Source of the DNA: Crassostrea angulata
Taxonomy: Eukaryota
Assembly: GCF_025612915.1 (NCBI RefSeq)
Contig: NC_069115.1
Coordinates: 25,791,757-25,855,756, forward strand
Length of the DNA stretch: 64,000 bases
Direction of reading: 5' to 3'
Shown here one piece after another: positions 3,090-64,000 of the stretch. Both the position numbers and the translations under genes were made by a program. The notes under the pieces are model-generated. The model ran no database searches. It was not told the origin of the DNA and worked only from the letters and a program-made list of their open reading frames with translations. The stretch's first letter is position 1. Each line of letters opens with the position of its first letter.

Positions 3090-3399
3090 ACTGGGACCTC
3101 ACAAGGGGTTCAGAGTTTGATGAAGGTTTATATCCTATATATAAACAATTGTTTAGGATCTTTTTGAGAACTGCAATGCTCAACATGTGATATGACTAAA
3201 AAATCATTTTGTTAGAAAAGGGAATAATGATAATAAACATAAGGATATCCAGAGGAAAAATGTATTTTTTTTATACATGATTTACATGTATTATACTAAA
3301 TTGTTTACTAGATAGTTTGTATTTAGACTACATTAAGCTGATTTTATCATATCTATTGTTCCTTAGATGAGCAATGAGGCCCATGGGCCTCTTGTTGAA
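3090..3399 (+). mobile_element. Family B non-autonomous element (about 310 bp) with the same 3' terminus as family A. It is an intact empty site for the family A insertion.
   Basis: ...cacaaggggttcagagtttgat...ggatcttttt|gagaactgcaatgctcaac...gagcaatgaggcccatgggcctcttgtt. Confidence 0.6.
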
Positions 3400-7517: not shown

Positions 7518-8898
7518 GAAATTGAGAAATTTTCAAAAACTCTTCTAAAAAACCATTAGGCCAGGAAAGCTGAAACTTGTGTGGAAGCATCATCAGGTAG
7601 TGTAGATTCAAAGTTGTGAAAATCATTACCCTTGGGGAAAGAGTAGTGCCACAATGGAGGGTCGAAGTTTTACATAAGAATATATAGATCAGTAAATCTT
7701 TAAAAATATTCTTCTCAAAAACTAATCAGCCAGGAAAGCTAAAACTTGTGTGAAAGCATCCTCAAGTAGTGTTGCTTCAAGTTGATAACACCATGACCCC
7801 CAAGGTGTAGGGTAGGGCCACAATGTGGGGGAGGGGGGGAGGTTGAAGTTTTACAAAGGAATATATAGGGTAAATCTTTAGAAATCTTCTTCTCAGAAAC
7901 CATTAGGCCAGGAAAGCTCAAACTTGTGTGGAAGCATCCGCAGGGAGTGTAGATTTAAAGTTGATAACATCATGATCCCCAAGGTGTAGGGTTGGGCCAC
8001 AATGGTGGTGGTCTAAGTTTAAGATATATAATATGTAGAATAAATCTTTAAAAATTTTCATCTCAAAAACTAGTCAGCCAGGAAAGCTGAAACTTGTGTG
8101 GAAGAGTTCTCGGGTAGTTTAGATATAAAGTTGAAAAAAATCATGACCCCCAGGGGTAGGGTGAGGCCAAAATTGGAGATCTATTTTTACATAGGAATTT
8201 ATAGAGTAAATCTGTGAAAATCTTCTCAGAAACCAATTGGCTAGAAAAGCTGAAACTTGTGTGGAAGAATTCTCAGGAAGTCGTGAAAACCATGACCCCC
8301 GGGGATAGGGTGGGGCAACAATGGGGGGGGGGGGTTAAGTTTTACATAGAAAAATATATAGAGTAATCTTTTCTTCTCAGAATCTAATCAGCCAGGAAAG
8401 CTGACCGTGGGGGTAGGGTGGGGCCACAATGGGGTGGGGTCAAAGTTTTACATAGGAATATATAGAGTAACTCTTTAAAAGTCTTCTCCTCAAGAACCAT
8501 TTTGCCAGGAAAGCTGAAACTTGTGTGGGAGCATCCTCAGGTAGTGTAGATTCAAAGTTGTTAAAATCATGATCCCCAGAGGTAGGGTGGAACATAATTG
8601 GGGGGGGGGGGTTGGTTGAAGTTTTACATAGGAATATATATTGTAAATCTTTAAAAATCTTCTTCTCAGAAACTAGGAAAGCTGAAACTTGTGTGGAAGC
8701 ATCCTCAGGTAGTGTAGATTCAAAGTTGTAAAAATCTTGATCCCCGGGTTAGGGTTGGGCCACAATGGGGGTGTTGAAGTTTAACATACTTATTAGGAAT
8801 ATGTAGAGTAAATCTTTAAAAATCCTCTTCTAAGAAACTAGGAAAGCTGAAACTTGGAAGCATCCTTAGGTAGTGTAGATTCAAAGTTGTAAAAATCT
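7517..8898 (+). repeat. Family A satellite array of about 8 monomers of 165-170 bp, preceded by (CT)n. It continues at 9803-10010 after a 904 bp insertion.
   Basis: Repeated aaagctgaaacttgtgtggaagcatcctcaggtagtgtagattcaaagttg...cccgggggtagggtggggccacaatggggg...ttttacataggaatatatagag. Confidence 0.85.
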
Positions 8899-16199: not shown

Positions 16200-19100
16200 A
16201 ACATTTCTTTAAAAGGAATTCTTTGTTTCTGTACTGTTTACCGACAACCTTACATTTACAGGTTTGAAAACATCATTCTCAAATATTGTAATATCAACAC
16301 CGTGTGAGAATGGATCGGTCTTGGACATTCTCAACCTCAGGACAAAACAATTACATCCAAAGCTAACATCAAAATTTTTTTTGAAAATGTACAGAGTTTG
16401 CTTTTTTACAAGTAATTTCACCACATCTAAGAAACCCGAAAAAAAGGCACAGGAGAACATACATTTCAACATCAGATCTAGAAATGGAGAAAAAGCTCCA
16501 TTGTCAAGTTCATGCCACAGTTGTTTCAATATACTGGCAATAATTAGGTAATCTGTTGTTAGAGACATTGTTTTGAGACTTTTTCACCCCTCGCAAAACA
16601 TACTGTAGCTGGTTAAAGTTATTCATAAAATCTCCATGACCTGCTCTAATATAGTAAAACCATTACTAAATAACCTGCTAAATACAATTTGATAGTGTCA
16701 TACTTGAGTTTTAAAACAGATTTACAATGAGTGACAAAATACATTTTAAGCAAAGTTTCATTTACTATTGGAAGACAGTAGGATTAAAACACAATTCCAC
16801 TCATAGAAATGAATGTCAGAAAACATTGTAACGCTGAACTGTAGGCCCTCTTGGTTGAACTGCTTAAGGATGCATCCCATAATTGGTTTAACTGCTCCCT
16901 CAGTCCTTCATTAGCTGCGAATGTTCCAGGCATTGTGTTGGCATCAGGTCGGCTTCTGGTGCCAGGGTTCGAAACTTCTACATCTGGTACGAGAGAGAGA
17001 GTCAGCAATAGTGTTCTTGACGCCATCAATATGAACAGCATGAATGATATAATGGTTACAGGCTGCATGAAAGGTTTAAGTTCTCATTAGTTTCATTATG
17101 CTTTTAACTTTTGAGCATCCTTTCCTAATAATGTCAACAGTTGTTTGGTTGTCACAATGAAAAAGAATGAGTTTCCTTGGCCAAGTATCACCCCACAGAA
17201 GACAGGCCATAACGATAGGATATAGCTCAAAAAGAACCATCGATGTGTTTTCCTTGGAAATGTTGTCAGGGAAATCTCCTTGAAACCACTTATTTTGGTA
17301 AAAGCCTCCAAAGGATGTAAGGGTTGCGTCTGTAAACAACTGCATATCCGCAGCCTCTGTCATGTTATCGTCGATGAAAAAGGACACTCCATTCCAGCTT
17401 TTTAAGAAATCTGACCACATAGCAAGGTTGTCCCTACACATACTGTCTAAGTGGACATGGAAATGAAGCGGCTCCTCTGTGGTTGATGAGGCTATCAGGT
17501 GAGAAATGAAAGATCGACCTGGCAGAACAACTCTGCAAGCAAAATTGAGGTGTCCCAGCAAATTGAGCAATTCTCTCTTTGTACATGATTTGCGTGTTTT
17601 GAAGGAATTACCGATAGATAAGATATGATCAATCTTCTCCGACAGTAAATGGGCTTCCATGTTCCAGGAGTCTAATATTATCCCAAGGTATTCTAGTTCT
17701 GTACAAGGTCCTTTGGTTTTCTTCTCCGATAGAGGAATCCCGAGGGTTCTAAATACCAGTATCCCCAGGAGTCTCTCCATCACTTTATGAGCATCATCAA
17801 ATAGTGGGACCACAACTAGGAAGTCATCCAACAGGTGCAGCACATTTGGTATGATATCTTGTATTTTTTCTCTGCAATCCAACACACAGCGGAAGACAGG
17901 GCATCAAAGATCTTTGGACTTGATCTGCTTCCAAAGACAAGGCGCTTGAAAAAATAGTATTTATCATCCCACTTAATTCCATGATATGGCCATAACTCTT
18001 ATGATATAGGCATGATATTGAAGGCATCAGTAATGTCGGTTTTAATAAGTGATGCTCCTTTCCCGCATAATTTAATTATAGTCTAATAGCATAATGGACC
18101 ATACAAGTAACCTAGGTTTAGTTCTTAGTTTACGATCTCTGTAACGCTGTCCGAGTTTAATGAAGCTGACTTTAGATTTTTGCATTCCAGAGAATTCTTT
18201 GGAAGATCCTGAAAGCCAGTATGAAAGCCAAAACGTAAACCATTCATAAGATATTCTGTAAATTGGGTGTCGGGATGATGTTGTAGAAGATTTTGAAGAC
18301 TGTCTATGTTGATGGGAGTTGTTACTTATTATCGAAACTGGATGTTACATCTTTTTGAAAGCCCCATTTGTGTGGGGCTGCTGGGATTTTTTGAGCTGCA
18401 ATTGTGTTAAGAGTGGTCTCCTCTGCAACTGATGCAGATGTGGGCGTTCTTGCATCTAGGTATGTGACAGCCTCTGAAGCCATTGAAGTTGTTACATATT
18501 TCTCTACCTTCATGAAATTCTCTCCGACGTCCATAAAAATCCATGTCCCCATTTCTCTTATCCCTAACTTTGTCGGTAATAGGGCAAAAGCCTGTAGAGT
18601 GCAGCGTACTGTTGCAGGTTGCACATGACTGCGGTCTGGCATTCGCAAACAAATTACAAAATAAAGTGTTATTCCACACAGACTAGTCAATGAGAATGTT
18701 ATTATACTTAAGATGTGAAGCGGCCATAAGACTGAATTGACGATGATATTCGTAGAACCCATTGCCTGTGTAGCCGGTAGCCATGTCAATGATATCCCTA
18801 TCATACAAATCTAACTCCTGTCTTCTTTGGGGATATGCTTGACACATTATATTTTTGTAAATTCCGAAAGCTTGAATGAACTCACCGATGTTTAGCAACT
18901 TCTGCAGTCGTTTATCCGGCTTCTTGTCATCTTTTTCGTCAGGGGGAGAGAAATATGGTATTAACAAGGATGCTAAATTGACATCCTTACCTGATGTAAT
19001 TTGGAGGCACAGATGAGGCGAGATGGTCTCTACCAGAAGGAGAGATTCTGCTGCGAATCCGAATCTCGTCCTCTTCAATTCCGGGCCCTGTGTTGGCAAT

Positions 19101-21959: not shown

Positions 21960-24900
21960 TTATGGTTCTATGCACTATTAAAACTGCCAAACAACAGCAA
22001 CTACGATTACTACTACGTTTAAAACGGACTGAAACAAAAACTTCTGGAACCATTTATTTAAATTTTAAAAAAGGAAAAGAAAGTGTTAGTGTTTTAATTG
22101 ATCAAACCTTTCCAGGTACTCCCCTGGAAGAGTTATTTCCCTCTCCAAACACCATTGCCAAATCTGACTTGCAAGACTTATCAACTTCTTTGATTTTGTA
22201 CCCCCAATGTTGTTTATGTATGCTATCGCTACTTTGTTGTGCGATTGCAATAGTGCGTGCTTTTTTAAAATTTTCGACTGAAAACAATGAATTGCTAAAA
22301 ATGCTGCTTTGAGCTCTAACTCGTTTATGTGCTGATCTCTTTCGTTTTCCATCCAAAGACCGCCCGTTTTTGTATTTTGACAAATTGCACCTCAACCTCT
22401 CAGGCTTGCATCTGATTTGACAATAATGTTTGGTTGGGGACGGACTAAAGCTCTCCCGTTCCATTTGCTTAGTTTTGAAGACCACCATATTAGTTCTTGT
22501 TTCGAATCCTCGTCTAATTGTACATGATGCTCGTAATTCCCTCCGGTATGCAGGGCTCTTGTTTTTAATAACTTGAGACTACTGTAATGAAGAGGTGAGG
22601 GTAGAACCCCTTGATTTGTAGCTGTCAGACGTCCTATTATTAGGGCCCCGCAAGGATTTGCGGGTGCCCTATAGTAATCACTCTGTCCGTCCGTCCTTCT
22701 GTCCGTCCGTCCGTCTGTCACTCTTCCGTCCACAAATTTCCTGTTTTTTTCTAATAACTTTTTTTATGGTTGCCCAATCAAGTTCAAATTTGGTATGGTA
22801 GTTCAGTAGGCAGAAATACATATTTTGATGCTAAGTTTGGTTCTCTATGTCTTCTGGTTTGGAGCTGGGGTGGTGGGGTAGATTCATAACTATGCATAAG
22901 AAGAATGGGCAAAGAGAGATAACTGCTGAGAATGAATGGGCAAAGAGAGATAACTGCTGAGAATGTTACCATTGTATACATGGAAGGCTGTGCAATATTT
23001 GTCCTTTGGGATTAATTAACCTTCCACAGGAAGAAAATCCTAAGCTTTATCTTTATCTGTCACATTGAGATTAATTACTGCACTGCCTGTGTCTGCAAAT
23101 GAACTTTGTTTTGAAGTTAAGGTCAATTTTGAATGATGTGTAGTATTGTGTACATTCTTTGAAATATGGATTTGAAATATAATATTCATATTTTTGGGGG
23201 TTAAAATACCGTACACAATGATTTATGATAGTTTTATTGAATAGAGGCAAAGCCTAGGTATCATTGCATTGGTATCAATTCTTTGTTTTTTTAACAAATT
23301 TTATTTCATCCCATGTTAACCCACTTTATCCCGTGGATATGACTCATTGGATATTTTTTTGATATTCCAGAGTTGTGACTTTACAATGGGATTTGCCTAG
23401 GCATAATGAAGTAAAAATAATGTAGAGTTTTATAAACAGTGTAAACATTGATTGCGGTGTATAAAATATGGGATAAATAGAATCTCATGATTTGTAGTAT
23501 AATATGATTTTTATCCAACTTGTGTGTTTTATCCCCTCACTAAGGCTCAAGAAAAAAACACTTTAATTGTTGGATGAAAATCATATCCAACTACAAATCA
23601 CGAGATCCTATATATTCCAGTTCTTTACATCTTCTGCCGGGCATTTATTTTTCATCATTGTTAATATAAAGAGGATGGAATTCAAAGTTTTTTTCACTTC
23701 TCTATATTAATTGTCATAGCGGGGCCCTTCCTGACTGGTCAGTTTTCTAGTTTGGGCTAGATCCCGAGCAGAGACAGACTGACGACTCACAAGATCTAAG
23801 CAATTCTGCTTTATCTTTATCACCTTTTCTTTTGGGAGAGAGAGGGTCATTGTTTCTGAGTTTACAGTGAATCCCAGAAATTCAGTTACATGTGAAGGGA
23901 CTAGAACTAACTTTTCCTGATTGATCAAAAACCCTAGATTCTCTAAGAGATAGACAGCTGTTGACAGATCTGATTGAATGCCTGTGAGAGGTAAACACAC
24001 GTGGTGCTATTGCAATTCCAAATGGAAGGGATGTATTAAACTCCATTATTTTGTTTTTCCAAAAAAATTTCAGAAATTTTCGAAATTTCTCTGCCACGTT
24101 TATTGTCAGGTACGCATCTTTTAAATCTAGTTTTACTAACCAATCTCCCTCTTCCATGAGATCTCTTAACAGCTGTATCCCCTCCATTTTGAAATGCTCG
24201 TAAGGGAGAAAACTGTTCAGATTTTTTAGATTTATTACAGGCCTTAACTCGCCCCCCTTCTTCATTACCAAAAATACGTTGCTGTAAAAGGAATCGCTTG
24301 TGGGAGTTGTCTCCCGTACCGCATTTTTCAACACTTAATTCTCTATTTCGGAATCTATCAAAATCTGTTTCTCTGATTTGAATTTCGATGGAATCGGAAT
24401 TTTTCCCTTGAAAGGATTTGATAATATGGGAATTTCTATCCCTTTGATTGATTGAAGGATCCAAGGATCCCGTGTAATTACTTTCCAATTCTGATAGAAA
24501 TGTTTTACACGTCCCCCAACTGGCACTGACTGGGGAATTTCTACAGCATTGAAAAACAGGAATTTTGATAGATTCCGATCGATCTCTGATAATTCTACCC
24601 GTTTTAGACTCACCTGATTCACTGAGTGACTGATTTCTTGGGAGGTACTGTATATTTCTGGTTTGCTCCCTGACCCTTGAATTGTGGGTACTTTGTGTAT
24701 CTCTGATTCTGAGTGAACTGCCTCCTGTCTGTCTGTCTGCGACCCCCATACTGGAGGCTTGATGAGGGTCTCTGTAGAAAAAACTGGCGGTTTCTGTCAG
24801 AAAACTGTCTTGTTTGTGACCAAACTTTCTTATCACTGCCATTAAACAATAGCTGTTTTAATTCTTTATTATCTTTGTTATCTTTCGCTAATTGTTTAAG

Positions 24901-25900
24901 AAAATGTTTCCCAAATAAATCACTTTTACATTTTCCCAATGATTTCTTGTACCTTTTTTCAGAAAGCACATCTACAGATTCTGGCATTGTTTTAGCTAAC
25001 ACTGCCTTACACCTATTAGTAATGAAAAGGAAATGGGCATTCCCTACAAACATAATCGCTCTTTGGACAAACTGAATAACATCAGAGGGGTCCATGCCCT
25101 TGCCTGTTTTGCTTATTCGCTCTGCCTCGCTCCTATAACAGAAAGTGGCCCTAAAGCATCTAAAATTCTCATCTGGGTATTTACTTTATTTTTCTCTAAC
25201 TTTCCATTCCATTTTTTACCCTTGAAAAATATTTTCTTGAAAAATATGTCCAAAGACAAGCCCTGAAGCTTTTTAGAATGAGGTATGGGACAAATCTTAG
25301 CAATAGCCTGTCTGTTCTTTTTGTTAATCCCTTTTGTTGCGTACGTAGTGACAAATTTCAGAATCTTTTTAGGGATTTTTGGCTTATAATTTGTGCTCTC
25401 AGAACATTAGAATAAATCAGAGTCCGAGTCAGACTCGGAACTAGAGCTTGAGGAGGAGCTAGAGGAGCTAGAACTAGAGGGACTTGAACTTGAGCTTGAA
25501 TCAGTTGATGTTTTGCTTTTCTTGCGTTTTCTAGAGCTTGAGCGTGTTCTAATAGAAACATCGCCGGACTTACTTTTTTCATTCCGAATTTGCTCTGACG
25601 ACCACTGCCGCCTTAAATCATCCTCTGTCTTATCAGCCACAGATACATGGTCTACTTCACATTGAGAGTCCTCTGACTCATCTACCTTTGTATTATCGCT
25701 CTCAACCGCCTCTGCGGGTGAGCTTTCTCTTTCGTCATGAGCCGGCGTAGCCTGTCCAGGCCCCGGCGAACGAAGTTGGGCATTAGCACTCCGAACACGT
25801 AAACATGTGTACACACTTGGCGAGCTGAATTGAAAGTCATCGATTGTATCTATCGAACGGTTAGGGTTTACCTGGGGCATGCGCATCAGGGGTTTCATAC
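21960..25900 (-). mobile_element. Degenerate DIRS-like (or LTR-type) retroelement 2, disrupted by a nested insertion at about 22641-23724
   Basis: RT motifs KLDLKDAY, LPFGIAIAPRVFT and FLGFTVNSETMTLSLPKEK at 23707-24334. RNase H motifs IVKSDASLRG and ELKAAFLAIHCF at 22086-22733. Gag-like and Ser-rich ORFs at 24619-25898. Multiple frameshifts. Confidence 0.55.
22641..23724. mobile_element. Nested non-autonomous element inside DIRS-like element 2. It carries a (GTCC)n microsatellite and has termini GGGCCCCGC and GCGGGGCCC.
   Basis: It interrupts the continuity of the RT and RNase H reading frames. The 9-bp GC-rich termini are inverted copies of each other. The (GTCC)n tract at 22681-22720 resembles the microsatellite module of the family A and family C elements. 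Confidence 0.35.
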
Positions 25901-37680: not shown

Positions 37681-37934
37681 GTATGTAACCTCAAGCTCCC
37701 TCATAACAAAGTTGTAAAGTAATGCAAATCATTAAAGAATAACACAGTTTGATGTATTAATATTATATCAAAGACTGAACAATCCTCTTATGATTTCTTA
37801 TGCAGTTTAATAAATAAGTGCAAGGTACAAACAGACTTATCTAAAAAAAATAATTATACCCACACTTTCTAAAGAAAATTCAGGTACCGGTATATTGTTG
37901 TTATCCTTTTCTGTCCCTCCGTTCATCACCTTAT

Positions 37935-37950
37935 TAGCTCACCTGAGCCA

Positions 37951-37982
<32 letters not shown>

Positions 37983-38089
37983 GTCCGTTGTCTGTCGTCG
38001 TTGTCGTTGTAAACTTTTCACATTTTAATCTTCTTCTCAAGAACCACTGGGCAGATTTCAACCAAATTTGGCATAAAGCACCACTAGGT

Positions 38090-38127
<38 letters not shown>

Positions 38128-39901
38128 CCCTCTTTAAAAGGGAGATAATTGAGAATTATTGAAAATTTGTTGGTACTTTTCAAAAATCTTCTTTTAAAAA
38201 ACTATTCGGCCTGAAAAGCTTAAACTTGTGTGGAGGCATCCTCAGGTAGTGTACATTCAAGTTTGTTCAAATCATGGTCCCAGGGGGTAGGGAAGGGCTA
38301 CAAGAGGGGGATCAAGTTTTACATAGGAATATATAGACAAAATCTTTAAAAATCTTCTTTTCAAAAACTATTTGGCCAGAAAAGCTCAAAGTAAAGTGGA
38401 AGCATCCTCAGATAGTGAAGATTCAAGTTTGTTCAAATCATGGTCCCCAGGGGTAGGGTGGGGCCACAATTAGGGGATCAAGTTTTACATAGGAATATAT
38501 AGAGAAAATCTTTAAAAATCTTCTTCTCAAAAATTATTAGGCCAGAAAAGCTCAAATTAAAGTGGAAGCATCCTCAGGTAGTGTAGATTCAAGTTTGTTC
38601 AAATCATGGTCCCCGGGGATATGGTGGGGCCACAATGGGGGAATGGATTTTTACATAGGAATATATAGAGAAAATCTTCTTCTCAAAAACTATTCAAATT
38701 AAAATGAAAGCATCTTCAGGTAGTGTAGATTCAAGTTTGTTCAGATCATTGTGCCTGGGGGTAGGGTGGGGCCACAATAGGGGGGATCAATTAAGTTTTA
38801 CATAGGAATATATAGAGGAAATCTTTAAAAATCTTCTTCTCAAAAACTTTTAGGTCAGCAAAGCTCAAATTTGAGTGGAAGCATGGATTTTTACATAGGA
38901 ATATATAGAGAAAATCTTCTTCTCAAAAACTATTCAAATTAAAATGAAAGCATCTTCAGATAGTATAGATTCAAGTTTGTTCAAATCATTGTCCCTAGGG
39001 GTAGGGTGGGGCCACAATTAGGGGATAAAGTTTTATACAACAATATATAGAGAAAATCTTTAAAAATAATTCTTTTAAAAATTATTTGCCCAAGAAAGCT
39101 CAAATTGGCGTGTAACCATCCTCAGATAATGTAGTTTCAAGTCTGTTCAAATCATGGTCCCTGGGGGTAGGGCGGGGCCACAATGGGGGATAAATTTTTA
39201 TAAATATAGAAAATCTTTAAAAATCTTCTCAAAACTATTAGGCCAGGAAAGCCCAAATTTGAGTGGAAGCATCCCCAGATCGTATAGATTCAAGTTTGTT
39301 TAAATAATAGTCCAGGGGTATGGTGAGACCACAATGGGGGATGAATTTTTACATAGGAATATATAGAGAAAATCTTTAAAAATCTTCTTTTTAAAGACTA
39401 TTTGGCCAGAAAAGCTCAACTTGTGTAGAGGCATCCTCGGGTAGTGTAAATTCAAGTTTGTAAAATCACAGTCCCTAGTGATAGGGCGGGGCCGTGATGG
39501 CGGTTTGAATTTTTACATAGGAATATATAGAAAAAATCTTTAAAAATATTCTGTGAAAGTTTTCGGTCCAAAACTCAGTATTTAGTGTGAAAGCACAGGT
39601 TATGCAAATTTAAGTTTAATGAAACCATTATTCCCTAGAGAAAAGTGGGACCACGAAATGGAGGTGGGGGGGGGGGGTATATAGGAATAGAGAAAAATCT
39701 TCTTACAGGTACAACAACAAAAGGGGCTTGGTATTTACCCAAAAAAAAAAGAGGTTGATAAAAATTGGCAGATTTTCATTTTTTTTTTTAGCAAGATCTT
39801 AGTACTTAGTTGTCAAGATATTTTGATTCTGTAATGCTAATTTGATTAGAATTAAGGCAATTGTTGCTCAGGTGAGCGATGTGGCCCCTGGGCCTCTTGT
39901 T
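37935..39901 (+). mobile_element. Family A composite element: head, about 10 monomers, tail
   Basis: Same head (37935) and tail (39860-39901) as the 12875 copy. The terminal monomer variants are shared with the copies at 12875 and 56215. Confidence 0.7.
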
Positions 39902-40142
39902 GTTTCTCATTTGATGAATTAGACTTAACATCTTTGATTCCCCAATCTTGGTTAAAAAGCAGTTCATAGTTAAATAAACTTGTACCAAAAATAATTTGAA
40001 AAATTGTTAATTCATACTTCATCTTATTTGGATTCTTTTTTTAGTTTAGTTGTTCTAAAAGTCATTAAGATTTTTATTAATCCATACTTAGAATAATTTA
40101 TGTTTTGTTCAGTCGTATCATGAATCATTCGTTTTTTTAGCT

Positions 40143-40239
40143 CACCTTAGCTGAAAGCTCCAGTGAGCTTCTCTGATCACTTTTTGTCTGGGGTCCATCG
40201 TTCTGTCTGTCTGTCCATCTGTCTGTATACTTTTTAGCC

Positions 40240-40277
<38 letters not shown>

Positions 40278-41060
40278 TTTTTGTCCTGTGTCCATCTGTC
40301 TGTCCGTCCGTCCATCTGTCTGTCTGGCTGTAAACTTTTTACATTTTCAACTTCTTCTCCAGAACCAATTGACCAATTTCAATTAAACTTGACACAAAGC
40401 ATCATTTGGTAAAGGGGATTCAAGTTTGTTAAAATGAAGGCCTTTCAAGGGGACATAATAAGGATTTATTAAAAATTTGTTGATATTTTTCATAAATCTT
40501 CTTCTCATAAACCATTTGGCAAGAAAAGCTGAAACTTGTTTTGAAGCATCATCAGATAGTGTAGATTCAAGTTTGTTCAAATCATGATCCCCGTGGGTAA
40601 GGTGGGGCCACAATGGGGGTCAAGGTTTTACATAGAATACACTGAGTAAATCTTTAAAAATCTTCTCCTCAGAAACCAATCAGCATGGAAAGCTGAAACT
40701 TGTAAGGAAGCATTCTGAGTTAGTGTAGATTTGAAGTTGTGAAAATCATGTCCCCTGGGGATAGGATGGGGCGAAAATGGGGAATCAAACTTAAACTTAG
40801 GAATATATATATTGTAAATCTTTTAAAATCTTCTTCTCAAACACCATTTGGCCAGAAAAACTAATTTATAAAAACTTGTGTGGAAGCATCCTCAATAAGT
40901 ACAAATTTAAGTTTTCTAAAAACCACTAAAGCTTCCCTAGAAAAGCTGTAACTTTACTGACAGCAACCTCAGATAGATTCAACTTTTTTCATATCAAAAT
41001 CTTGAGGAGTAGGGTGGGGCCACATTGAGTATCCAATTTTACAAAGAAAAATATTTTAAT
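40143..41060 (+). mobile_element. Family A element with a duplicated head (40143 and 40243), GTCY-rich tracts and about 4 monomers. No tail.
   Basis: Two tandem heads, ttagctcaccttagctgaaagctccagtgagc and tagcccacctgagctgaaagctcaagtgagc. Confidence 0.6.
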
Positions 41061-45155: not shown

Positions 45156-46613
45156 TCAGTTAGAAAATTTAACATATTTTTTACTAATTTTAAATCTGCC
45201 ACATTCAAAGTCATCAACTACTCTTGGTAAAAGTTTGTTGAAGTAAAAACAACATAGTCTTGAAATAGCTGCTTCACAAAACTGTTGGTCATATTGTACA
45301 TCAATGACCTTGTATTCATTAGTTGTCCAAATAACAAGTTTGCACAGCTGCATATGTGTTACATGCAAAGTTAACTGCATTTGAAGGTAATAGCCCCTTG
45401 AACTGTTATGCTTAAAATATAATGTACCATTTTGCAAGGATTTCACAACATCATATTTACCAATTGTAAATAAGCTGTCAAGTGTTTGATCATTCTTAAG
45501 TATTGGACATTTAATTTCCAAAAGACATTTTGAACCATCAGCATTGGTTACTATTCCATCTGGGGAAACACTTAGCCAGGGCTCTTCACCTTCTTGTCCA
45601 TGTCTAGTAAATTTGTTTGATGTGAAGGAAGGGTACATATGTTCTCTTAAGAAGTTATCACTATTTGTAGTGTCACGAACGGGAACCTTGTGGTGCTCAG
45701 TACTGCCAGTTATTCTTATTTTTCTACTGTTGTGCCACAATTCAGATTCACTTTGTGAAATTGTTGCCATCGATAACGATTGAATTTGGGCATCATTAAG
45801 TTTAATGTACATGTACCTGTTATAAAACGCACAACACTTTTCACAAGATAGTTCACCTGTATGCTCAGTACGAGGCTCGGATGAAGATTCGAAAAGAGAT
45901 TTGTTTATATTTGCGTGCATAGATTTACTTAAAAGTGAATTTTCTAAAAGAAATAATTCTTTAAGTTCTGAGTTTTCCACAAAATATTTAAAAGATTGAT
46001 ATGATACAAACATTGGGAAGATAGATTTTGTATTTTGTGGTTTTTCAGTATTGTTGTTAACCTCACTGCCATATTTAGGTTTTTTAAAGTCCATCTCTTC
46101 AAGAACACCTGGTTCAAGGTTTCTTGTCGCACCCTTATTCCACTGCATCTGCTCATCTGTACAAGATTTTCCCGTAAAACCTAACCTTACAGCATGCTCA
46201 ATTTTCCACAAAAGTGCGCCTACATGACTGCACGTTTTACTGTTCCCAGCCATACATGAACATCCCCCGTTTAGAATTGTGCCGATCATATCACAGAATA
46301 CCCATGCATTGTGAAACTCTGAATTTATTTTTTGTGACGGGCGCACTTCAGATTTCAGAATAACTGTATTGTGAATAACAAAATGAAGAATTTTCCCGAC
46401 AGAACCGCTTTTAAAATAATTGTAACTGTCCAATGATTTGTAATTTTTCATTTTTTCGCCGTCACATGCTCTACTTAAAATCAAATAATTGTAGATATCG
46501 CCATATTCTACTTGTGGCCACTCACGAATGTCATCCTTCCATTCACCGGTTTTGACGTCTTTTTGGGAAGAAATCATTCGATCAGTATCTTTTTTGCATT
46601 GACTCTTATCCAT
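45156..46613 (-). CDS. Intronless 485-aa ORF encoding a SWIM-type zinc finger plus a YqaJ/lambda-exonuclease-like PD-(D/E)xK nuclease
   Basis: SWIM signature CSCMAGNSKTCSHVGALLW (CxCxnCxH). YqaJ-type motifs ITGSTEHH, WLSVSPDGIV and KCLLEIKCP (motif ExK). ATG at 46611-46613 and stop at 45156. No internal stop codons over 1458 nt in an AT-rich region. TTTATT on the + strand at about 44930 would be the minus-strand poly(A) signal. Confidence 0.7.
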   Translation of the reverse strand: MDKSQCKKDTDRMISSQKDVKTGEWKDDIREWPQVEYGDIYNYLILSRACDGEKMKNYKSLDSYNYFKSGSVGKILHFVIHNTVILKSEVRPSQKINSEFHNAWVFCDMIGTILNGGCSCMAGNSKTCSHVGALLWKIEHAVRLGFTGKSCTDEQMQWNKGATRNLEPGVLEEMDFKKPKYGSEVNNNTEKPQNTKSIFPMFVSYQSFKYFVENSELKELFLLENSLLSKSMHANINKSLFESSSEPRTEHTGELSCEKCCAFYNRYMYIKLNDAQIQSLSMATISQSESELWHNSRKIRITGSTEHHKVPVRDTTNSDNFLREHMYPSFTSNKFTRHGQEGEEPWLSVSPDGIVTNADGSKCLLEIKCPILKNDQTLDSLFTIGKYDVVKSLQNGTLYFKHNSSRGYYLQMQLTLHVTHMQLCKLVIWTTNEYKVIDVQYDQQFCEAAISRLCCFYFNKLLPRVVDDFECGRFKISKKYVKFSN

Positions 46614-46800
46614 GATTTACATAAACGAAAAATATAATACAGTTTCATATAACAAAACTTTGCTAGCAAGAATTTTATGTTACCGGGGAATGGTTGCTAC
46701 CGCGTTTGTTTATCCAGCGTCACGGTTACAATGGCGGCTGTTTTCCGCGACACCTATCGGGATGAAATTTTACTAAGGGAAATAACTGAAAAAAGTCGTC

Positions 46801-48310
46801 TATTGATCAAAGGAGTCACATGCAGATGACAGAAATTTTCTTTGGATTTTTAATACTCTTCACTTATTTATAAAATATCTTTGAATCATATTCCTAATAT
46901 TTTAAGGGCAATTTAATACGATTATTACTACTACACGTTACATATTTTATTTAAAAACACGCAGTGAAAAAGTGCTAGGGAGGAGGTCCTAGGAACAGCC
47001 GCATTGATCTTTTAACAATAAACATTTGAGGCAATACACATCGTTTTGACTGGAACTAGGACTTGAAAATGACAAAGTTTTAAAACTTTTTCAATTTGAA
47101 GTTGTACTTTCATGATCAGTGCAAGAAAGGTAGGTATTTCTGATCTGATAATTTACTGATGACATTTGTGGTATATTTAAGAAATAAGGTATGAGTTATC
47201 GTGAATGTTGCAGAATAAGCTCTGAGGTTGAGAATGTTGTTTTGAAATATAAAAGCCGAGGTGATGTGTATCGATCAAAGGAATCACGTGCAGACGACAG
47301 AATTTTTTCTTGGGATTTTAATACTCTTCACTTATTTTTAAAATACCTTTGAGTTATATTCCTAATATTTTAAGGGCAATTTACGATTATTACTACTACA
47401 CGTTATATATTTTATTTTAAAAACACGCAGTGAAAAAGTGCTAGGGAGGTCATAGAAACAGCCGCATTGATCTCTTAAAAATGAACATTTGAGGCAATAC
47501 ACTTCGTTTTGACTGGAACAAACACGTGAAATTGACATGGTTTTAAATCTTTTTATGGTTTGAAGTTGTACTTTCATGATCAATGCGAGACAAAAAGGTA
47601 TTTCTGATCTGATAATTTACTGATGACGTTCGTGGTATAATTAAGAAATAAAGTACGAGTTGTCTTGAATGTTGCAGAATAACCTCCGAGGTCGAGAAAT
47701 GTTGCTTTGAAATATAAAAGCCGAGGCGTTAGCCGAGGCTTTTATATTTCAAACAACATTTCGAGACCGAGGAGGTTATCCTGCAACATTCACGAAAACA
47801 AGAACTTTATTTCTATTCTACTAAAATGTAACAGCCCAGTATTTCTATACAGTTCGTTTCTCCTATAGAGAGACGATGTAGGTCATTTTGAAGGCTGTTC
47901 CGTGTAACCCCAACGGTTTTGTTAGTAATGTTTACATGTGTATCGATCAAAGGAATCGCATGCAGACGACAGAATTTATCTTTGGATTTTTAATTCTCTT
48001 CACTTAATTGTAAAATATCTGTGAGTTATATTCCTAATATTTTAAAGGCAATTTTATACGATTATTACTACTACACGTTATATATTTTATGTAAAAACAC
48101 GCAGTGATAATGTGCTGGGGAGGTCCTAGGAACAGCCGCATTGATCTCTTAAAATTATCATTAGAGGCAATACACATCGTTTTGACTGGAACTAACACGT
48201 GAAACTGACATGGTTTTAAAACATTTTAAAGTTTGAAGTTGTACTTTCATGATCAGTGCGAGACAAATAAGTATTTCTTATCTGATAATTTACTGATGAC
48301 GTTCGTGGTA
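46801..48310 (+). repeat. Tandem repeat of three ~470 bp units. The third unit is separated by a ~200 bp spacer that contains a palindrome.
   Basis: Units start at 46801, 47272 and 47941. Each begins tcgatcaaaggartcac and ends gtgaatgttgcagaataa...aaataaaagccgagg. Confidence 0.8.
47667..47795. repeat. Head-to-head palindrome formed by the 3' end motif of the 470 bp unit. Arms are 47667-47727 and 47735-47795.
   Basis: The reverse complement of the right arm matches the left arm at about 85% identity. The centre is gccgaggc gtta gccgaggc. Confidence 0.75.
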
Positions 48311-49074
48311 TATTGGAGAATAATGTCCGCGGCATCTCTTTGATCTTGGCAATAACTGTAGTAGAATAGAGAATAATGTCCGCGGCATCTCTTTGATCTC
48401 GGCAATACTGTAGTAGAAGTGTAAATAGAGTATATGTATAGTGTTATTGAAAAGATCTGTTTATACTATTCTTTTCATGTTTCAATTAAGTAAAAACATA
48501 TTTACTACTTGGCGGATTCAATCCAGCAACCGCAAAATCTAACAGACCACCTTTGGTATTTCATCACAGGACATATTATGTCCGTAAGCTTTAATTGAAT
48601 TTTACCTAATAAGTAGTTATTGTAAAATTAATTAAAAACCTACATTCATTTTGATAAACCAACCCGAATTAGCAAAAATGAGATTAAGGTGGTGGACATG
48701 CTTTGGCGGATCCAAGTCAGTGGTAGTTTGTATCAAAATATACTCTGCATTGAAATGATATAATTGCATTATTATGTAAGAGTGAATATATATACCGGTA
48801 ACTAAATTATAGTATGACAAAAATTAAGATTTGACAAATGTTGAATAAATAAAATGCACCAATTCGTTTTTGGAATGTGCGATTTTAGTTTTGATACAAA
48901 GAACTTTCCAGTACTGGGTAACTAAGAAGGCGGTTTGACTATATAATTGTCGCAATGGCAGAAAAAGTAAGACGAAGTTTGAGGTACTTCACTACACCGA
49001 GACTTATACTTTTTGAGACAATAAGTCACAAGATGGCGATTTAAATGTTTTGTTAAACTGTTTGTATCAATCTA

Positions 49075-56096: not shown

Positions 56097-56214
56097 GTAA
56101 AAATGATTATAATTTTTTCATTTCTCTGGAGTTTTCAGAACCATAAGAAGCATTAAAGCTAAACAACATTACACTGTACATTAGAAGTATATATATTTAA
56201 GGTAATGCCATTTA

Positions 56215-56231
56215 TTAGGTCACCTGAGCCA

Positions 56232-56263
<32 letters not shown>

Positions 56264-56291
56264 GTCCGATGTCTGTCGTTGTCGTCATCGT

Positions 56292-56322
<31 letters not shown>

Positions 56323-57758
56323 AAGAACCGCTGGGCAAATTTCAACCAAATTTGGCACAAAGCACCACTAGGTAAAGGGGATTCCAGTTTGTTTAAATGA
56401 AGGGCCACGGAAAATTATTGAAAATTTGTTGGTATTTTTCAAAAATCTTCTTCTCAAAAACTATTCGGCCTGAAAAGCTTAAACTTGTGTGGAGGCATTC
56501 TCAGGTAGTGTAGATTCAAATTTGTTCAAATCATGGTCACCGCGGGTAGGGAGGGGCCACAGGGGAGGGTCAAGTTTTACATATGAATATATAGAGAAAA
56601 TCTTTTAAAAATCTTCTTCTCAAAAACTATTAGGCCAGGAAAGCTCAAATTAAAATGGAAGCATCTTCAGGTAGTGTAGATTCAAGTTTGTTCAAATCAT
56701 GGTCTCTGTGGGTAGGGTGGGGCCACAATAGGGGGGATCAAGTTTAACATAGGAATTTATAGAGGAAATCTTTAAAAATCTTCTTCTCAAAAACTATTAG
56801 GCCAGGAAAGCTTATATTTGAGTGGAAGCATCCTCAGATAGTGTAGTTTTAAGTTTGTTACAATCATGGTCACCGGGGGTAGCGTGGGGACACAATTGGG
56901 GGATCAAGTTTTACATAGGAATATTTAGAGGAAATCTTTAAAAATCTTTTTCTCAAAAACAAGAAAGCTCAAATTGGCGTGTAACCATCCTCAGATAATG
57001 TAGATTCAAGTCTGTTCAAATCATGGTACCTGGGGGTAGGGCGGGGCCACAATGGGGGATAGTTTTTATACATAGAGAAAATCTTTAAAAATCTTCTATT
57101 AGGCCAGGAAAGCCCACATTTGAGTTGAAGCATCCCCAGATCGTATAGATTCAAGTTTGTTTAAATAACAGTCCAGGGGTACAGTAAGGCCACAATGGGG
57201 GATGAATTTTTACATAGATATATAGAGAAAATCTTTAAAAATCTTCTTTTTAAAGACTATTTGGCCAGAAAAGCTTAAACTTGTGTAGAGGCATCCTCGG
57301 GTAGTGTAAATTCAAGTGTGCAAAATCAGTCCCTAGTGATAGGGCAGGGCTTTGATGGCGGTTTGAACTTTTACATAGGAATATATAGAGAAAATCTTTA
57401 AAAATATTCTGGGAAAGTTTTCGGTCCAAAACTCAGTACTTAGTGTGAAAGCACAGGTTATGCAGATTTAAGTTTGATGAAACCATGATTCCTTAGAGAA
57501 AAGTGGGGCCACGAAATTTTGGAGGGGGGGGGGGGGTACATAGGAATAGAGAAAAATCTTCTTACAGGTAGAATAACAAAAGGGGCTTGGTATTTACCAA
57601 AAAAAAAAGAGGTTGATAAAAATTGGCAGATTTTCAATTTGTTTTAGTAAGATATACTGTACTTAGTTGTCAAGATATTTTGATACTGAAATGCTAATTT
57701 GATTTAGAATTAAGGCAATTGTTGCTCAGGTGAGCTATGTGGCCCCTGGGCCTCTTGT
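56215..57758 (+). mobile_element. Family A composite element (head, about 7 monomers, tail) inside the last MVP intron
   Basis: Head is taggtcacctgagccaaaggctcaagtgagc. Tail ends ggcccctgggcctcttgtt at 57758. Confidence 0.7.
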
Positions 57759-57926
57759 TTTTATAATTATTTTAAACACCATGTAAACTTGAAAAAGAAT
57801 CAGACTCCCATTACAAATGCTGTTCATGTAAACTCATCATGGAAAAGCATTTATTACAGACATAAACTGAAATGTGTGTTAATCACTTCTGCAAAATTGT
57901 GTTTGAAATAACAATTATTTTTTTAG

Positions 57927-58299: not shown

Positions 58300-59764
58300 A
58301 TATGTAAGAGATTATTTAAGTGTTATATTGTAGATTATTTTAAAATACTATTTACTTTACATTTATAGTCAAAATATTTCTGTATCTTTGATATCTTGAT
58401 AAATTCATTAGAATTTTGATAAACATTTTCATGTTAGATATACGTTATATTTTCCACACATTCATATCGTCCACTATCTAATTTATTTTCTTGCGAAATT
58501 TTGAATATTTTTGTGATTTATAAATTTTGAAATAAATAAAACATTCGTCAAATGCATCTCTTATCTTGTTTAGTTAATTTAAATAAATGGTACTTCTGTA
58601 CTATTTAAGGAAGTTGACTTAGTTTTATAAGGTTAATTTACAATAGCATGTCCTAATTAAGAATCAAACAAATAATAGCAAACATATTTATTTTATTAAA
58701 AAATGCATGGATTTCATGCTTAATAAGAGGCCAACAGACCTTAAGGATCACATTAGTACATTGTACTTTAGCGCGTACACAGTCTTGTCAAGGAATCTCA
58801 TATTTATGCATTTAATTAAGCTTCATTCTGGAGTAAAAAAAATCTTAAATGTGTTAATGACCACCCCCCCCCCCTTCCTGAAATCTTGCAATCATCCAAA
58901 TTTTATTGGGAATGTGACAAAAGGGTAGAAATGGCACTTGGCAAGTGCACTTTCGAATAATGAAAAAACTTTTTAAAAAATTTAATATAATTTATATATA
59001 CCGGTATATAGATATTCCACCTGTCTGGTGGTTATTTTAGCGTCAACTGTCTTTGCATGCAACCTGGCAAGGAACTTTCATCTAATCACCTGGCTATTCT
59101 AACAGGTTATGTCACTTGGTCAAGCATCGGACAACAAACAACTTGACACTTTACCACTTGCATGCAACTTATCACTACAGGTTTTATTTTACTTTTTTCT
59201 CTACCAATTCTCATGTTAAACAAATCTTGCAGAATATAACAAAGTGATATTCTATATCTATGCAACACTTCTGCACTCAATATTCACCACTCTATGGAAT
59301 TTTTTACCAACAAAGCTTTAGTTTTCTTACTATCCACAACTCTCTCTATAAATATTTTAATAAAATCTACAAAAACTTTCTGTTTTGTTATGTTTTATAT
59401 AACAAAATACATGTAAAACTCTTTTAATCATTGGACTTCTTAAGTACACAATTTACATTAATTACCTATTTCATAAACAAGCAACGGAGATAACACTTTT
59501 AACCGTTTCAGTACCCCCTCCCCCTTTTTTTAAAGACTGAACTCTTGCTCAGTGGTTGAAAAGGCTTTCCTGGTTACTTAAATTTGACAGATTCTTTCAT
59601 CTTTCTAAATGTGCAATCAGATTCTATTAGTAAGTAGACCTTGAGAAGATTATTAAACATTATATACAAAAAAACACAGTATTTTTGCCACATCTTGCAG
59701 TAAAAACCCCTTCATTCCCCGAGTGTCATGAAATTAACCATTTTGATAGAAAGCTTAGAGGTTT

Positions 59765-62700
59765 GTCCAGTGCAGTTTGTTCAAATCTTGGTTCCCGGGG
59801 GTAGGGTAGGGTCACAATAGAGGGATCAAGTTTTACATAGGAATATATAGAGAAAATCTTTAAAATCTTCTTCTCAAAGCATCCTCAGGAAGTGTAGTTT
59901 CAAGTTTGTTCAAATCATGGTCCCCGGGGGTAGGGTTGGGCCACAATAGGGGGGGGGCAAGATTTACATAGGAATATATAGAGAAAATCTTTAAACTTTC
60001 TTCTCAAAAACAATTATGCAAGAAAAGCTCAAATTAAAATGGAAGTATCCTCAGGTAGTGTAGATTCTAGTTTGTTAAAATCATGGTCCCCGGGGGTAGG
60101 GTAGGGCCACAGTAGGGGGATCAAGTTTTACATAGGAATATATAGAAAAAATCTTTAAAATCTTCTTCTCAAAAATTATCCGGGGAGGAAAGCTCAAATT
60201 GAATTGGAAGCATCATCAGGAAGTGTAGTTTTAAGTTTGTTCAAATCTTGGTTCCCGGGGGTAGGGTAGGGCCACAATAGAGGGATCAAGTTTTACATAG
60301 GAATATATAGAGAACATCTTTAAAATAGAAAAGCTCAAATTAAAATTGAAGCATCCTCAGGAAGTGTATATTCAAGTTTGTTCAAATCATGGTCCCCGGG
60401 GGTAGGGTTGGGCCACAATAGGGGGGGGCAAGATTTACATAGGAATATATAGAAAAAAATCTTTAAACTTTCTTCTCAAAAACGATTACGTCAGGAAAGC
60501 TCAAATTAAAATGGAAGTATCCTCAGGTAGTGTAGATTCAAGTTTGTTCAAATCATTGTCCCCGGGGGTAGGGTAGGGCACGGTAGGGGGATCAAAATTT
60601 ACATAGGAATATATAGAGAAAATCTTTAAAATCTTCTTCTCAAAAAGTATCATGTCAATAAAGCTCATATTAAAATGGAATTATCGTCAGGTAGTGTAGA
60701 TTCTAGTTTGTTCAAATCATGGTCCCCGGGGGTAGGGTTGGGCCACAGTAGGGGGATCAAGTTTTACATAAAAATATATCGAGAAAATCTTTAAAATCTT
60801 CTTCTCAAAAAGTACCAGCGGAGGAAAGCTCAAATTGAAATAAAAGCATCATCAGGAAGTGTTGTTTCAAGTTTGTTCAAATCTTGGTTCCCAAGAATAG
60901 GGTAGGGTCACAATAGAGGGATCAAGTTTTACATAGGAATATATAGAGAAAATTTTTAAAATCTTCTTCTCAAAAATTATCAGGTTAGGAAAGATCAAAT
61001 TAAAATGGAAGCATCCTCAGGAAGTGTATATTCAAGTTTGTTCAAGTCATCGTCCCCGGGGGTAAGGTTGGGCCACAATAGGGGGGGGGGGGTCAAGATT
61101 TACATAGGAATATATTGAGAAAATCTTGAAACTTTCTTCTCAAAAACGATTACGCCAGGAAAGCTCAAATTAAAATGGAAGAATCCTCAGGTAGTGTAGA
61201 TTCAAGTTTGTTCAAATCATGGTCCCCGGGGGTAGGGTAGGGCAACAGTAGGGGGATCAAAATTTACATAGGAATATATCGAGAAAATCTTTAAAAACTT
61301 CTTCTCAAAAAGTATCATGTCAATAAAGCTCATATTAAAATGGAATTATCGTCAGGTAGTGTAGATTCTAGTTTGTTCAAATCATGGTCCCCGGGGGTAG
61401 GGTTGGGCCACAGTAGGGGGATCAAGTTTTACATAAAAATATATCGAGAAAATCTTTAAAATCTTCTTCTCAAAAAGTACCAGCGGAGGAAAGCTCAAAT
61501 TGAAATGAAAGCATCATCGTGAAGTGTAGTTTCAAGTTTGTTCAAATCTTGGTTCCCAAGAATAGGGTAGGGCCACAATAGAGGGATCAAGTTTTACATA
61601 GGAATATATAGAGACAATCTTTAAAATCTTCTTCTCAAAAATTATCAGATTAGGAAAGATCAAATTAAAATGGAAGCATCCTCAGGAAGTGTAGTTTCAA
61701 GTTTGTTCAAATCATCGTCCTCGGGGGTAAGGTTGGGCCACAATAGGGGGGGGGGGTCAAGATTTACATAGGAATATATTGAGAAAATCTTTAAACTTTC
61801 TTCTCAAAAACGATTACGCCAGGAAAGCTCAAATTAAAATGGAAGAATCCTCAGGTAGTGTAGATTCTAGTTTGTTCAAATCATGGTCCCCGGGGGTAAG
61901 GTAGGGCCACAGTAGGGGGATCAAGTTTTACATAGGAATATATAGAGAAAATCTTTAAAATCTTCTTCTCAAAAAGTATCATATCAGAAAAGCCCATATT
62001 AAAATGGAATTATCCTCAGGTAGTGTAGATTCTAGTTTGTTCAAATCATGGTCCCCGGGGGTAGGGTAGGGCCACAGTAGGGGGATCAAATTTTAAATAG
62101 GAATATATAGAGAAAATCTTTTTCTCAAAAAGTATCAGGGGAGGAAAGCTCAAATTGAAATCGAAGCATCATCAGGAAGTGTAGTATCAAGTTTGTTCAA
62201 ATCTTGGTTCCTGGGGGTAGGGTAGGGCCACAGTAGGGGGATCAAGTTTTACATAGGAATATATAGAGACAATCTTTAAAATCTTCTTCTCAAAAAGTAT
62301 CAGGGGAGGAAAGCTCAAATTGAATTGGAAGCATCATTAGGAAGTGTAGTTTAAAGTTTGTTCAAATCTTGGTTCCCGGGGGTAGGGTTGGGCCACAATA
62401 GAGGGATCAAGTTTTACATAGGAATATATAGAGAAAATCTTTAAAATCTTCTTCTCAAAAAGTATCATGTCAGAAAAGCTCAAATTAAAATGGAAGCATC
62501 CTCAGGAAGTGTAGTTTCAAGTTTGTTCAAATCATGGTCCCCGGGGGTAGGGTTGGGCCACAGTAGGGGGATCAAGATTTACATAAGAATATATCGAGAA
62601 AATCTTTAAAATCTTCTCAAAAAGTACCAGCGGAGGAAAGCTCAAATTGAATTGAAAGCATCATCAGGAAGTGTAGTTTCAAGTTTGTTTAAATCTTGGT

Positions 62701-62916
62701 TCCCGAGAATAGGGTAGAGTCACAATAGAGGGATAAAGTTTTACATAGGAATATATAGAGAAAATTTTTAATCTTCTTCTCAAAAATTATCAGGTTAGGA
62801 AAGCTCAAATTAAAATGGAAGCATCCTCAGGAAGTGTAGTTTCATGTTTGTTCAAATCATCGTCCCCAGGGGTAGGGATGGGCAACAATAGGGGGGGGGG
62901 GTCAAGTTTTACATAG
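59765..62916 (+). repeat. Family A-related satellite array in the + orientation, about 19 monomers with a roughly 665 bp four-monomer higher-order repeat
   Basis: Monomer subtypes a, b, c and d recur in the order b-c-d-a with a period of 663-666 bp (b-type at about 60429, 61095, 61758). Confidence 0.85.
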
Positions 62917-64000
62917 TTTTTGAGAAGAAAGTTTAAAGATTTTCTCTATATATTCCTATGTAAAACTTGATCCCCCTACTGTGGCCCAAACCTACCCCTG
63001 GGGACCATGATTTGAACAAACGAAAATCTACACTTCCTGAGGATGCTTCCATTTTAATTTGAGCTTTCCTGGCGTCATAGTGTTTGAGAAGAAAGTTTAC
63101 AGATTTTCTCTATATATTCCTATGTTAAACTTGATCCCCCTACTGTGGCCCAACCCTACCCCCGGGGACCATAATTTGAACAAACAAGAATATTCACTTT
63201 CTGAGAATGCATTCATTTTAATTTGAGCTTTCCTGGCGTCATAGTTTTTGAAAAGAAAGTTTACAGATTTTCTCTATATATTCCTATGTAATACTTGATC
63301 CCCCTTCTGCGGCCCAACCCTACCCCCGGGGACCATGATTTGAACAAACTAAAATCTACACTACCTGAGGATGCTTCCATTTTAATTTGAGCTTTCCTGG
63401 CGTCATAGTTTTTGAGAAGAAAGTTTAAAGATTTTCTCTATATATTCCTATGTAAAAGTTGAACCCCCAACTGTGTCCCAACCCTACCCCCGGGGACCAT
63501 GATTTGAACAAACTAAATCTACTCTACCTGAGGATGCTTCCATTTTAATTTGAGCTTTCTTGGCGTCATAGTTTTTGAGAAGAATGTTTAAAGATTTTCT
63601 GTATATATTCCTAAGTAAAACTTGGTCCCCCTCCTGTGGCCCTACCCTACATCCGGGGACCATGATTTGAACAAACAAGAATATTCACTTCCTGAGGATG
63701 CTTCCATTTTAATTTCAGCTTTCCTGGCGTCATATTTTTTGAGAAGAAAGTTGACAGATTTTCTCTATATATTCCTATGTAAAACTTGATCCCCCTACTG
63801 TGGCCCAACCCTACCCCCGGGGACCATGATTTGAACAAACTAAAATCTACACTACCTGAGGATGTTTCCATTTTAATTTGAGCTTTCCTGGCGTCATAGT
63901 TTTTTTGAAGAATGTATAAAGATTTTCTCTATATATTCCTAAGTAAAACTTGATCCCCCTACTGTGGCCCAACCCTACCCCTGGGGACCATGGTTTGAAC
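62917..64000 (-). repeat. The same satellite in the inverted orientation, running to the end of the window
   Basis: Monomers are reverse complements of the upstream array. The junction is catag|tttttgagaag. Confidence 0.85.

Follow-up and report, generated by a model that had tools for sequence, protein, structure and literature searches.

A probable old strand-switch scar in a standalone Cg170/HindIII-type satellite block of Crassostrea angulata

The 64,000-nt stretch of Crassostrea angulata DNA analysed here (the window) ends in a block of tandem satellite monomers, 162-170 nt long (TRF periods 164-165), whose orientation changes once, at 62916/62917. By TRF, BLAST and anchor-based extraction the + strand part of the block occupies 59774-62916 and comprises 20 monomers (P01-P20), 19 of which are full-length or internally deleted (internal deletions are found in P01 and P04) while the last, P20, is cut to 72 nt. 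It is followed directly by ~6.6 monomers on the - strand (M01-M07; TRF copy count 6.6), of which the first, M01, retains 106 nt, the next five (M02-M06) have their full length of 163-164 nt and the last, M07, is interrupted by the end of the window. A preliminary description had placed about 19 forward monomers at 59765-62916 and at least six reverse monomers beyond them, and apart from the small adjustments to count and left edge given above it was confirmed. The raw sequence, TRF, a BLAST of one monomer against the window and the anchor-based monomer extraction agree on the flip, and GC skew changes sign at the junction, from +0.18 to +0.32 on the forward side to -0.15 to -0.22 on the reverse side. 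The window contains 0 Ns, so the join at 62916/62917 is not a scaffold gap.

59774-62916, + strand: forward satellite array P01-P20, ~165-bp monomers attributed to the Cg170/HindIII family; standalone, with no Helentron head to the left
62917-64000, - strand: reverse satellite array M01-M07, 6.6 copies of a single monomer type, running past the window end

Copies of the family elsewhere in the window form at least 13 short arrays at positions 5-57418, all of them on the + strand in the one-monomer BLAST. Copies on the - strand are confined to the last block, which holds the single flip among at least 13 arrays in 64 kb; the change of monomer orientation takes place inside one array and gives kilobase-sized inverted sub-arrays. 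The two sides are organised differently. Between 60541 and 62916 the + array is built as a four-monomer higher-order repeat, A-B-C-D, of ~660 bp, in which counterparts are 96-98% identical (P07/P11 98%, P09/P13 98%, P06/P10 97% and P08/P12 96%) as against 82-90% between types, and this repeat reaches the junction as ...D-A-B(cut). The - arm is made of a single monomer type with a mean within-arm identity of 91% and the diagnostic CTATGACGCCAGG, and no higher-order repeat comparable to A-B-C-D was found in the reverse array.

Many of the monomers hold a short ORF of 33-74 aa starting MEASSGSV..., for example at 62815-62916 (+), 62933-63052 (-) and 63647-63871 (-). It is most likely a chance ORF, and a public gene-position index has no called gene on record for ORFs of this type. 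The same index has none on record for four short ORFs beside or inside the arrays, and the only stop-free translation across the junction (46 aa) gave no candidates in a protein search.

On sequence comparison the terminal block is assigned to the oyster Cg170/HindIII satellite family, which is related to BIV160. The consensus of either arm is ~86% identical over ~157 nt to the published C. gigas CL1 repeat (supplement of PMC7492417), and the window array at 8503-8675 is 92.5% identical to the same repeat. The CL1 consensus is in turn 93.7% identical to the Cg170 consensus (Table S3, PMC7492417, Vojvoda Zeljko et al. 2020), and the link to the latter goes through the CL1 repeat, with which the arms were compared. 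[quoted passage not shown] A full-text literature search with a monomer 17-mer returned 0 papers, and no match to the monomer was found in the supplements of the satellitome papers.

The oyster Cg170/HindIII satellite is mostly spread as the central repeats of non-autonomous Helentrons (HINE), whose left side consists of a 5' subTIR, a complementary IR and a microsatellite and whose right side consists of a 3' subTIR followed by a palindrome (PMC7492417, PMC8268682). Neighbouring arrays of the window carry this published architecture (5' subTIR, IR and microsatellite; 3' subTIR and palindrome), the left module here being TTAGCTCACCTGAGC...GCTCAAGTGAGC with (GTC/TGTC)n and the right module GCTCAGGTGAGCGATGTGGCCCCTGGGCCTCTTG. 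Heads, which start TTAGCTCACCTGAGCCAAAGGCTCAAGTGAGC and continue into the (GTC/TGTC)n microsatellite, were recognised in at least seven places (11479, 12870, 26333, 37930, 40230, 53092 and 56212), and tails finishing with the right module in at least eight (ends at 3397, 13630, 13866, 27089, 39901, 42008, 53512 and 57762), all on the + strand. Unlike these HINE-borne arrays the terminal block stands alone. No head or tail module is present in 59000-64000, which takes in both the junction and the left edge of the + array, and the last one in the window ends at 57762, which leaves none within 5 kb of the junction; the earlier observation that head and tail motifs are missing from the junction thus holds in a window where such modules are recognisable elsewhere. 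The left flank, 59100-59773 (674 bp), is unique within the window. With no HINE ends and a unique left flank, the terminal block qualifies as what Tunjic-Cvitanic et al. 2021 (PMC8268682) call a standalone array. It differs from the known members of the family also in its orientation flip, none being described for Cg170/HindIII in the oyster satellite literature examined.

Several features of the HINE copies are worth recording in their own right. All recognisable heads and tails, together with the 13 or more short arrays, lie on the + strand across ~58 kb (1-57800). Such uniform orientation would not be expected of independent insertions and may have come from local tandem or rolling-circle reinsertion, or from segmental duplication, an example for which is the pair 37931-39904 and 56212-57762 (83-88% alike). 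In the HINE left module, ahead of the array proper, lies a short piece of satellite-monomer origin (GATTCAAGTTTGTTCAAAT...), at 38098-38124 and at equivalent positions in other heads; it is reminiscent of the isolated 39-bp monomer segment that has been reported from the left flank of Cg170 arrays in C. gigas (PMC5139131). Immediately before the element at 40230, the first part of a HINE head with its TCTGTCCGTCC microsatellite is present twice in tandem, as two 97-bp copies with 88% identity at 40134-40323.

The region as a whole appears to be transposon-rich. Long ORFs lie at 910-2331, 4347-5519, 17076-17885 and 23882-25095, and some of their translations look by eye like retroelement or reverse-transcriptase sequence. 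A 485-aa ORF at 45156-46613 (-), 16 kb upstream of the junction, has only a faint match to the YqaJ family in Pfam, is directly followed at 46798-48329 by ~3 copies of a 464-bp tandem repeat, and is probably part of a transposon. An identical 485-aa protein has been called from run SRR327421 on a Logan contig of 1962 bp, which is too short and too distant to bear on the junction.

The join itself reads ...TCAAGTTTTACATAG|TTTTTGAGAAGAAAG... and contains no inserted bases. At the junction-equivalent position the forward monomers all read ...TTTTACATAG|GAATATAT..., and the monomer boundary of the reverse array, read on the + strand, is ...GGCGTCATAG|TTTTTGAGAAG... in five of the six intact copies, with CATAT in the other. 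The features of the junction and of the palindrome around it are as follows.

62845-62916, + strand: P20, last forward monomer, type B (G11 run), ending after 72 nt at ...TTTTACATAG (monomer alignment)
62869-62901, + strand: G-quadruplex-like motif GGGGTAGGGATGGGCAACAATAG11, 10 nt before the microhomology (regex scan)
62912-62916, no strand: 5-bp microhomology CATAG, common to the end of P20 (ACATAG) and the continuation of the - array (GTCATAG|TTTTTGAGAAG)
62917-62955, - strand: asymmetric spacer of 39 nt with no left-arm partner, continuous with the - array (M01) (semi-global arm alignment)
62917-63022, - strand: M01, first reverse monomer, 106 nt, 90-95% identical to other M monomers
61874-62916, + strand: left arm of the imperfect palindrome, counted up to the point where its partner leaves the window; pairs with 62956-64000
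62956-64000, - strand: right arm of the imperfect palindrome (inverted-repeat search, arm alignment)

The motif CATAG belongs to both sides, and the breakpoint may thus lie anywhere in 62912-62916. We infer the pre-event sequence of M01 from its neighbours, in which five of the six intact junctions read CATAG. In an exhaustive listing of 2.8 million joins between the intact + and - arrays, microhomology of at least 5 bp arises by chance in a fraction of 0.006 (0.6%), and 55% of random joins have none. On the - strand the sequence across the join reads ...TTTTACATAG[GAATATATAGAGAAAATCTTTAAACTTTCTTCTCAAAAA]CTATGTAAAACTTGA...; after CTCAAAAA the expected continuation of the array is CTATG(ACGCCAGG), and CTATG also complements the CATAG that lies 39 nt upstream. 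The spacer is contiguous with one arm and has the inverted microhomology CATAG/CTATG at its boundary, as would be looked for at a fold-back junction. The junction is asymmetric, as noted earlier, with 39 nt left unpaired at 62917-62955. The junction 18-mer, TACATAGTTTTTGAGAAG, occurs once in the window at 0 mismatches.

G-quadruplex-like motifs of the form G4-5 TA G3 TA/TT G3 N8 G5 are present in most monomers (13 forward on the + strand, five reverse on the - strand). In type-B monomers the last G run is expanded to 8-12 G, and the copy beside the junction has G11 at 62891-62901. G-rich sequences and tandem repeats are reported to be enriched at rearrangement breakpoints (PMC4090240). It is possible that the motif near the junction acted as a replication obstacle or otherwise contributed to the event.

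The arms on either side of the spacer bear out the earlier view of a large imperfect palindrome made of satellite monomers, 61874-62916 pairing with 62956-64000, and a search of 61800-64000 gave 57 inverted-repeat pairs 30 nt or longer. Compared with the reverse complement of the right arm, the left arm is 87.6% identical over 1027 aligned columns with 18 gaps. Identity between arms in per-monomer bins is 80-92% and has no gradient toward the centre, the innermost pair, P20/M01, being 89.6% identical. In the mirror register, where P19 is paired with M02, P18 with M03 and so on, mean identity is 85.7%, compared with 84.6-86.3% in registers shifted by 1-12 monomers. On this evidence from alignment the arms are not recent copies of each other, nor the reverse-complement copies that a recent fold-back would give, with their 87.6% identity, no mirror register and an A-B-C-D repeat that is not mirrored. 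Since there is no mirror register and the higher-order repeat is missing from the - arm, the event was not a recent fold-back.

A neighbour-joining tree of all full-length monomers extracted from the window places the P and M monomers in one clade, apart from the HINE-borne arrays of the window, which points to a shared local origin of both arms. Within it the M monomers are a clade of their own, with P type B as its sister group, and type B also includes the junction monomer P20, which is ~90% identical to the other type-B monomers P02, P05, P09 and P13.

Taken together, these observations are probably best explained as an old strand-switch scar in a standalone block of the Cg170/HindIII family, left by one microhomology-mediated join of inversion type and followed by separate evolution of the two sides. 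A single non-homologous join would have connected, by way of CATAG, a forward monomer ending at position 72 with a reverse monomer cut at position 106, most likely in an inversion-type event within one local array lineage. Thereafter homogenisation would have taken separate courses, giving the four-monomer higher-order repeat on the + side and one B-like monomer type on the - side. The evidence favours a join in which transposition was not involved. The preliminary description had suggested an origin by fold-back or inversion during replication. This stands as regards the class of event, given the cut monomers on both sides, the 5-bp microhomology, the clean join and the junction free of transposon ends. 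A recent date is not supported, the mirror register being missing.

The join could have been reached by three routes. In the first, a 3' end ...CTCAAAAACTATG on the - strand may have annealed to CATAG on a template of opposite sense and been extended, either by fold-back or by template switching during replication. In the second, a two-break inversion may have been repaired by microhomology-mediated end joining (MMEJ), with one break in each of two related sub-arrays. In the third, a deletion may have fused two pre-existing opposed arrays. The junction signature fits fold-back or template switching and equally MMEJ between two broken monomers. Routes 1 and 2 agree with the arms being sisters and with the + orientation of everything else in the window; route 3 needs no later turnover, yet it requires an opposed array to which nothing else points. 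If the fold-back was intrastrand, the arms would have been identical at birth and later overwritten by unequal exchange, and the ~12% divergence and the complete loss of mirror register require that this turnover was extensive. A reciprocal junction left by an inversion would take the form ...TATATTC(CTATG)ACGCCAGG..., that is ...GATTTTCTCAATATATTC[CTATG]ACGCCAGGAAAGCTC...; the pattern TATATTCCTATGACGCCAGG is absent within the window at up to three mismatches, and such a junction would lie downstream. We infer from the sequence of the join the repair pathway, the order of events and, indeed, the existence of the junction in the organism.

This last point bears on the possibility that the junction is an assembly artefact, in which a chimeric read or a mis-join put together two real opposed satellite blocks and no such junction exists in the organism. 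We consider this unlikely, while recognising that satellite arrays are error-prone in assemblies, that the junction is found once in the window and has no confirmation from independent sequence, and that the block sits at the window end, where part of its context is missing. It is also the case that chimeras derived from amplification can carry microhomology. Set against these considerations, there is no N gap, and overlap-based mis-joins keep the strand through the shared repeat, so that a flip within 5 bp would presumably have to occur in at least one read. The 5-bp microhomology, with its chance of 0.006, is not expected of ligation chimeras, and the two sides are each other's closest relatives among the arrays of the window, which is unexpected for a random chimera. 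Nor are the arms mirror images of the kind that missing-adapter or fold-back reads produce.

A hairpin or fold-back chimeric read was considered separately and rejected: a near-perfect mirror would be expected of it, and with 87.6% arm identity and no mirror register the arms are not mirror copies, which makes this form of artefact unlikely. Exact-pattern searches of metagenome and prokaryote-genome contigs with the junction 27-mer AGTTTTACATAGTTTTTGAGAAGAAAG, an arm-specific 34-mer and a family-wide 33-mer gave 0 matches, in collections that evidently do not hold oyster DNA of this kind.

A second alternative is that two opposed arrays, HINE-borne or otherwise separate, lost their intervening DNA and element ends in a microhomology-mediated deletion. 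The family is mostly spread by HINE (PMC7492417, PMC8268682) and the window is full of HINE, and a simple deletion would explain both the microhomology and the non-mirror arms with no need for later turnover. Yet every other array, head and tail in the window is on the + strand, the + array is free of a HINE head at its left edge as well, and the P and M monomers cluster in a clade of their own, away from the HINE-borne arrays of the window; we therefore regard such a deletion as improbable. The direct head-to-head abutment of two intact HINE elements can be ruled out, as there is no head or tail module near the join.

It is also conceivable that the flip belongs to a recurrent, conserved unit, either a macro-dyad inversion site of the kind found in Tribolium or the centre of a foldback-type transposon with inverted termini built of satellite. 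Such organisations do exist (PMC13081366), foldback elements such as Tetris being cited in PMC8268682, and the arms here are of kilobase size and built of tandem monomers. However, there is one flip only among at least 13 arrays in 64 kb, and the junction sequence is unique in the window and has 0 matches in metagenome and prokaryote contigs, which are evidently devoid of such oyster DNA. Neither terminal motifs nor a target-site duplication are visible, the right end lying beyond the window, and no terminal motif that might mark the end of a foldback transposon is recognisable at the left edge near 59774. The oyster satellite papers examined, moreover, give a uniform repeat orientation relative to the flanks, with no mention of inverted arrays. 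A recurrent unit is thus very improbable. The same low standing must be given to the bolder proposition that the flip is one copy of a conserved inversion site which organises standalone Cg170/HindIII arrays into hairpin-capable macro-dyads, the G-quadruplex-like motif promoting the switch. If this proposition were true, macro-dyad architecture, recently described only for Tribolium, would gain a molluscan example, in a satellite of transposon origin for which a centromeric location is reported.

Least credible of all is a recent fold-back inverted duplication, from a hairpin-capped break of the breakage-fusion-bridge type, giving a true and unstable palindrome: the short spacer contiguous with one arm, the 5-bp inverted microhomology (compare PMC3907307) and the folding of the single strand into a long hairpin would suit it, but it is already contradicted by arms that are 87.6% identical with 18 gaps (89.6% even in the innermost pair, P20/M01), by a mirror register no better than the shifted ones and by the unmirrored A-B-C-D repeat of the + arm.

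The folding potential of the junction is nevertheless considerable. As a single strand, 62760-63112 is predicted to fold into one long imperfect hairpin with a dG of -125.6 kcal/mol (z = -22.7 relative to shuffled sequences at -34.5 +/- 4.0 kcal/mol), the loop of which is the spacer at 62917-62955. By this folding prediction, then, the secondary-structure potential of the single-stranded junction is real. It does not follow that the site is fragile. In yeast Alu inverted repeats an increase of the spacer from 12 to 20 bp lowers recombination ~40-fold, an arm identity of 86% lowers rearrangement rates ~58-fold in wild-type cells, and inverted repeats diverged or spaced in this way regain activity only in long single-stranded regions (PMC10164571). 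By analogy with these repeats, strong cruciform fragility of the oyster junction is unlikely because of its 39-nt spacer, its arm identity of ~88% and the mismatches near its centre. The persistence of the junction for long enough to allow the arms to diverge points the same way. The characterisation of the locus as fragile and cruciform-prone was consequently overstated, in view of the spacer length and the ~12% divergence between arms as set against the yeast Alu data.

Comparison with other systems helps to place the old strand switch that we favour. Complete assemblies commonly reveal strand switches of this sort in satellite DNA. In humans, HSat3 and beta-satellite arrays contain more than 200 inversion breakpoints, with inversions also in alpha-satellite arrays (bioRxiv 10.1101/2021.07.12.452052), and the macro-dyad symmetries of Tribolium, confirmed on raw HiFi reads, are built by inversion sites that are conserved (PMC13081366). 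The oyster junction resembles these in its abrupt change of orientation within an array of one family, in the truncated or divergent monomers at the inversion point and in arms that are kilobase-scale inverted sub-arrays. It differs in that the array is short (more than 4.2 kb) and surrounded by transposons instead of forming part of a megabase centromeric block, and in that a single site is seen, with no sign that its sequence is conserved and recurs as an inversion site or that the arms match in length.

A further parallel is found in human fold-back inverted duplications, where the spacer continues directly into one arm and the inverted microhomology measures 2-8 bp (Hermetz et al. 2014, PMC3907307). 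The oyster join shares with them the inverted arms, the contiguity of the spacer with one arm and the short inverted microhomology, here 5 bp, at the boundary between spacer and inverted copy. Its spacer is 39 nt, in contrast to 766 bp to 70 kb in those junctions (PMC3907307). Unlike them, its arms are not copies of each other, and it lies in a tandem repeat, every monomer of which carries the same microhomology. The oyster flip is therefore a new instance of a well-known phenomenon, in a family for which the oyster satellite papers examined hold no report of one.

The flip alone opens no new question, lacking as it does the perfect arms and short spacer of a strong fragile site. For assembly curators it marks a position to check. 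If the junction is real, it is useful material for models of bivalve satellite turnover, as a nucleotide-resolved case of a transposon-derived satellite that has been freed from its Helentron carrier and remodelled by microhomology-mediated rearrangement, after which each side homogenises in its own way, into a higher-order repeat on one side and a single monomer type on the other.
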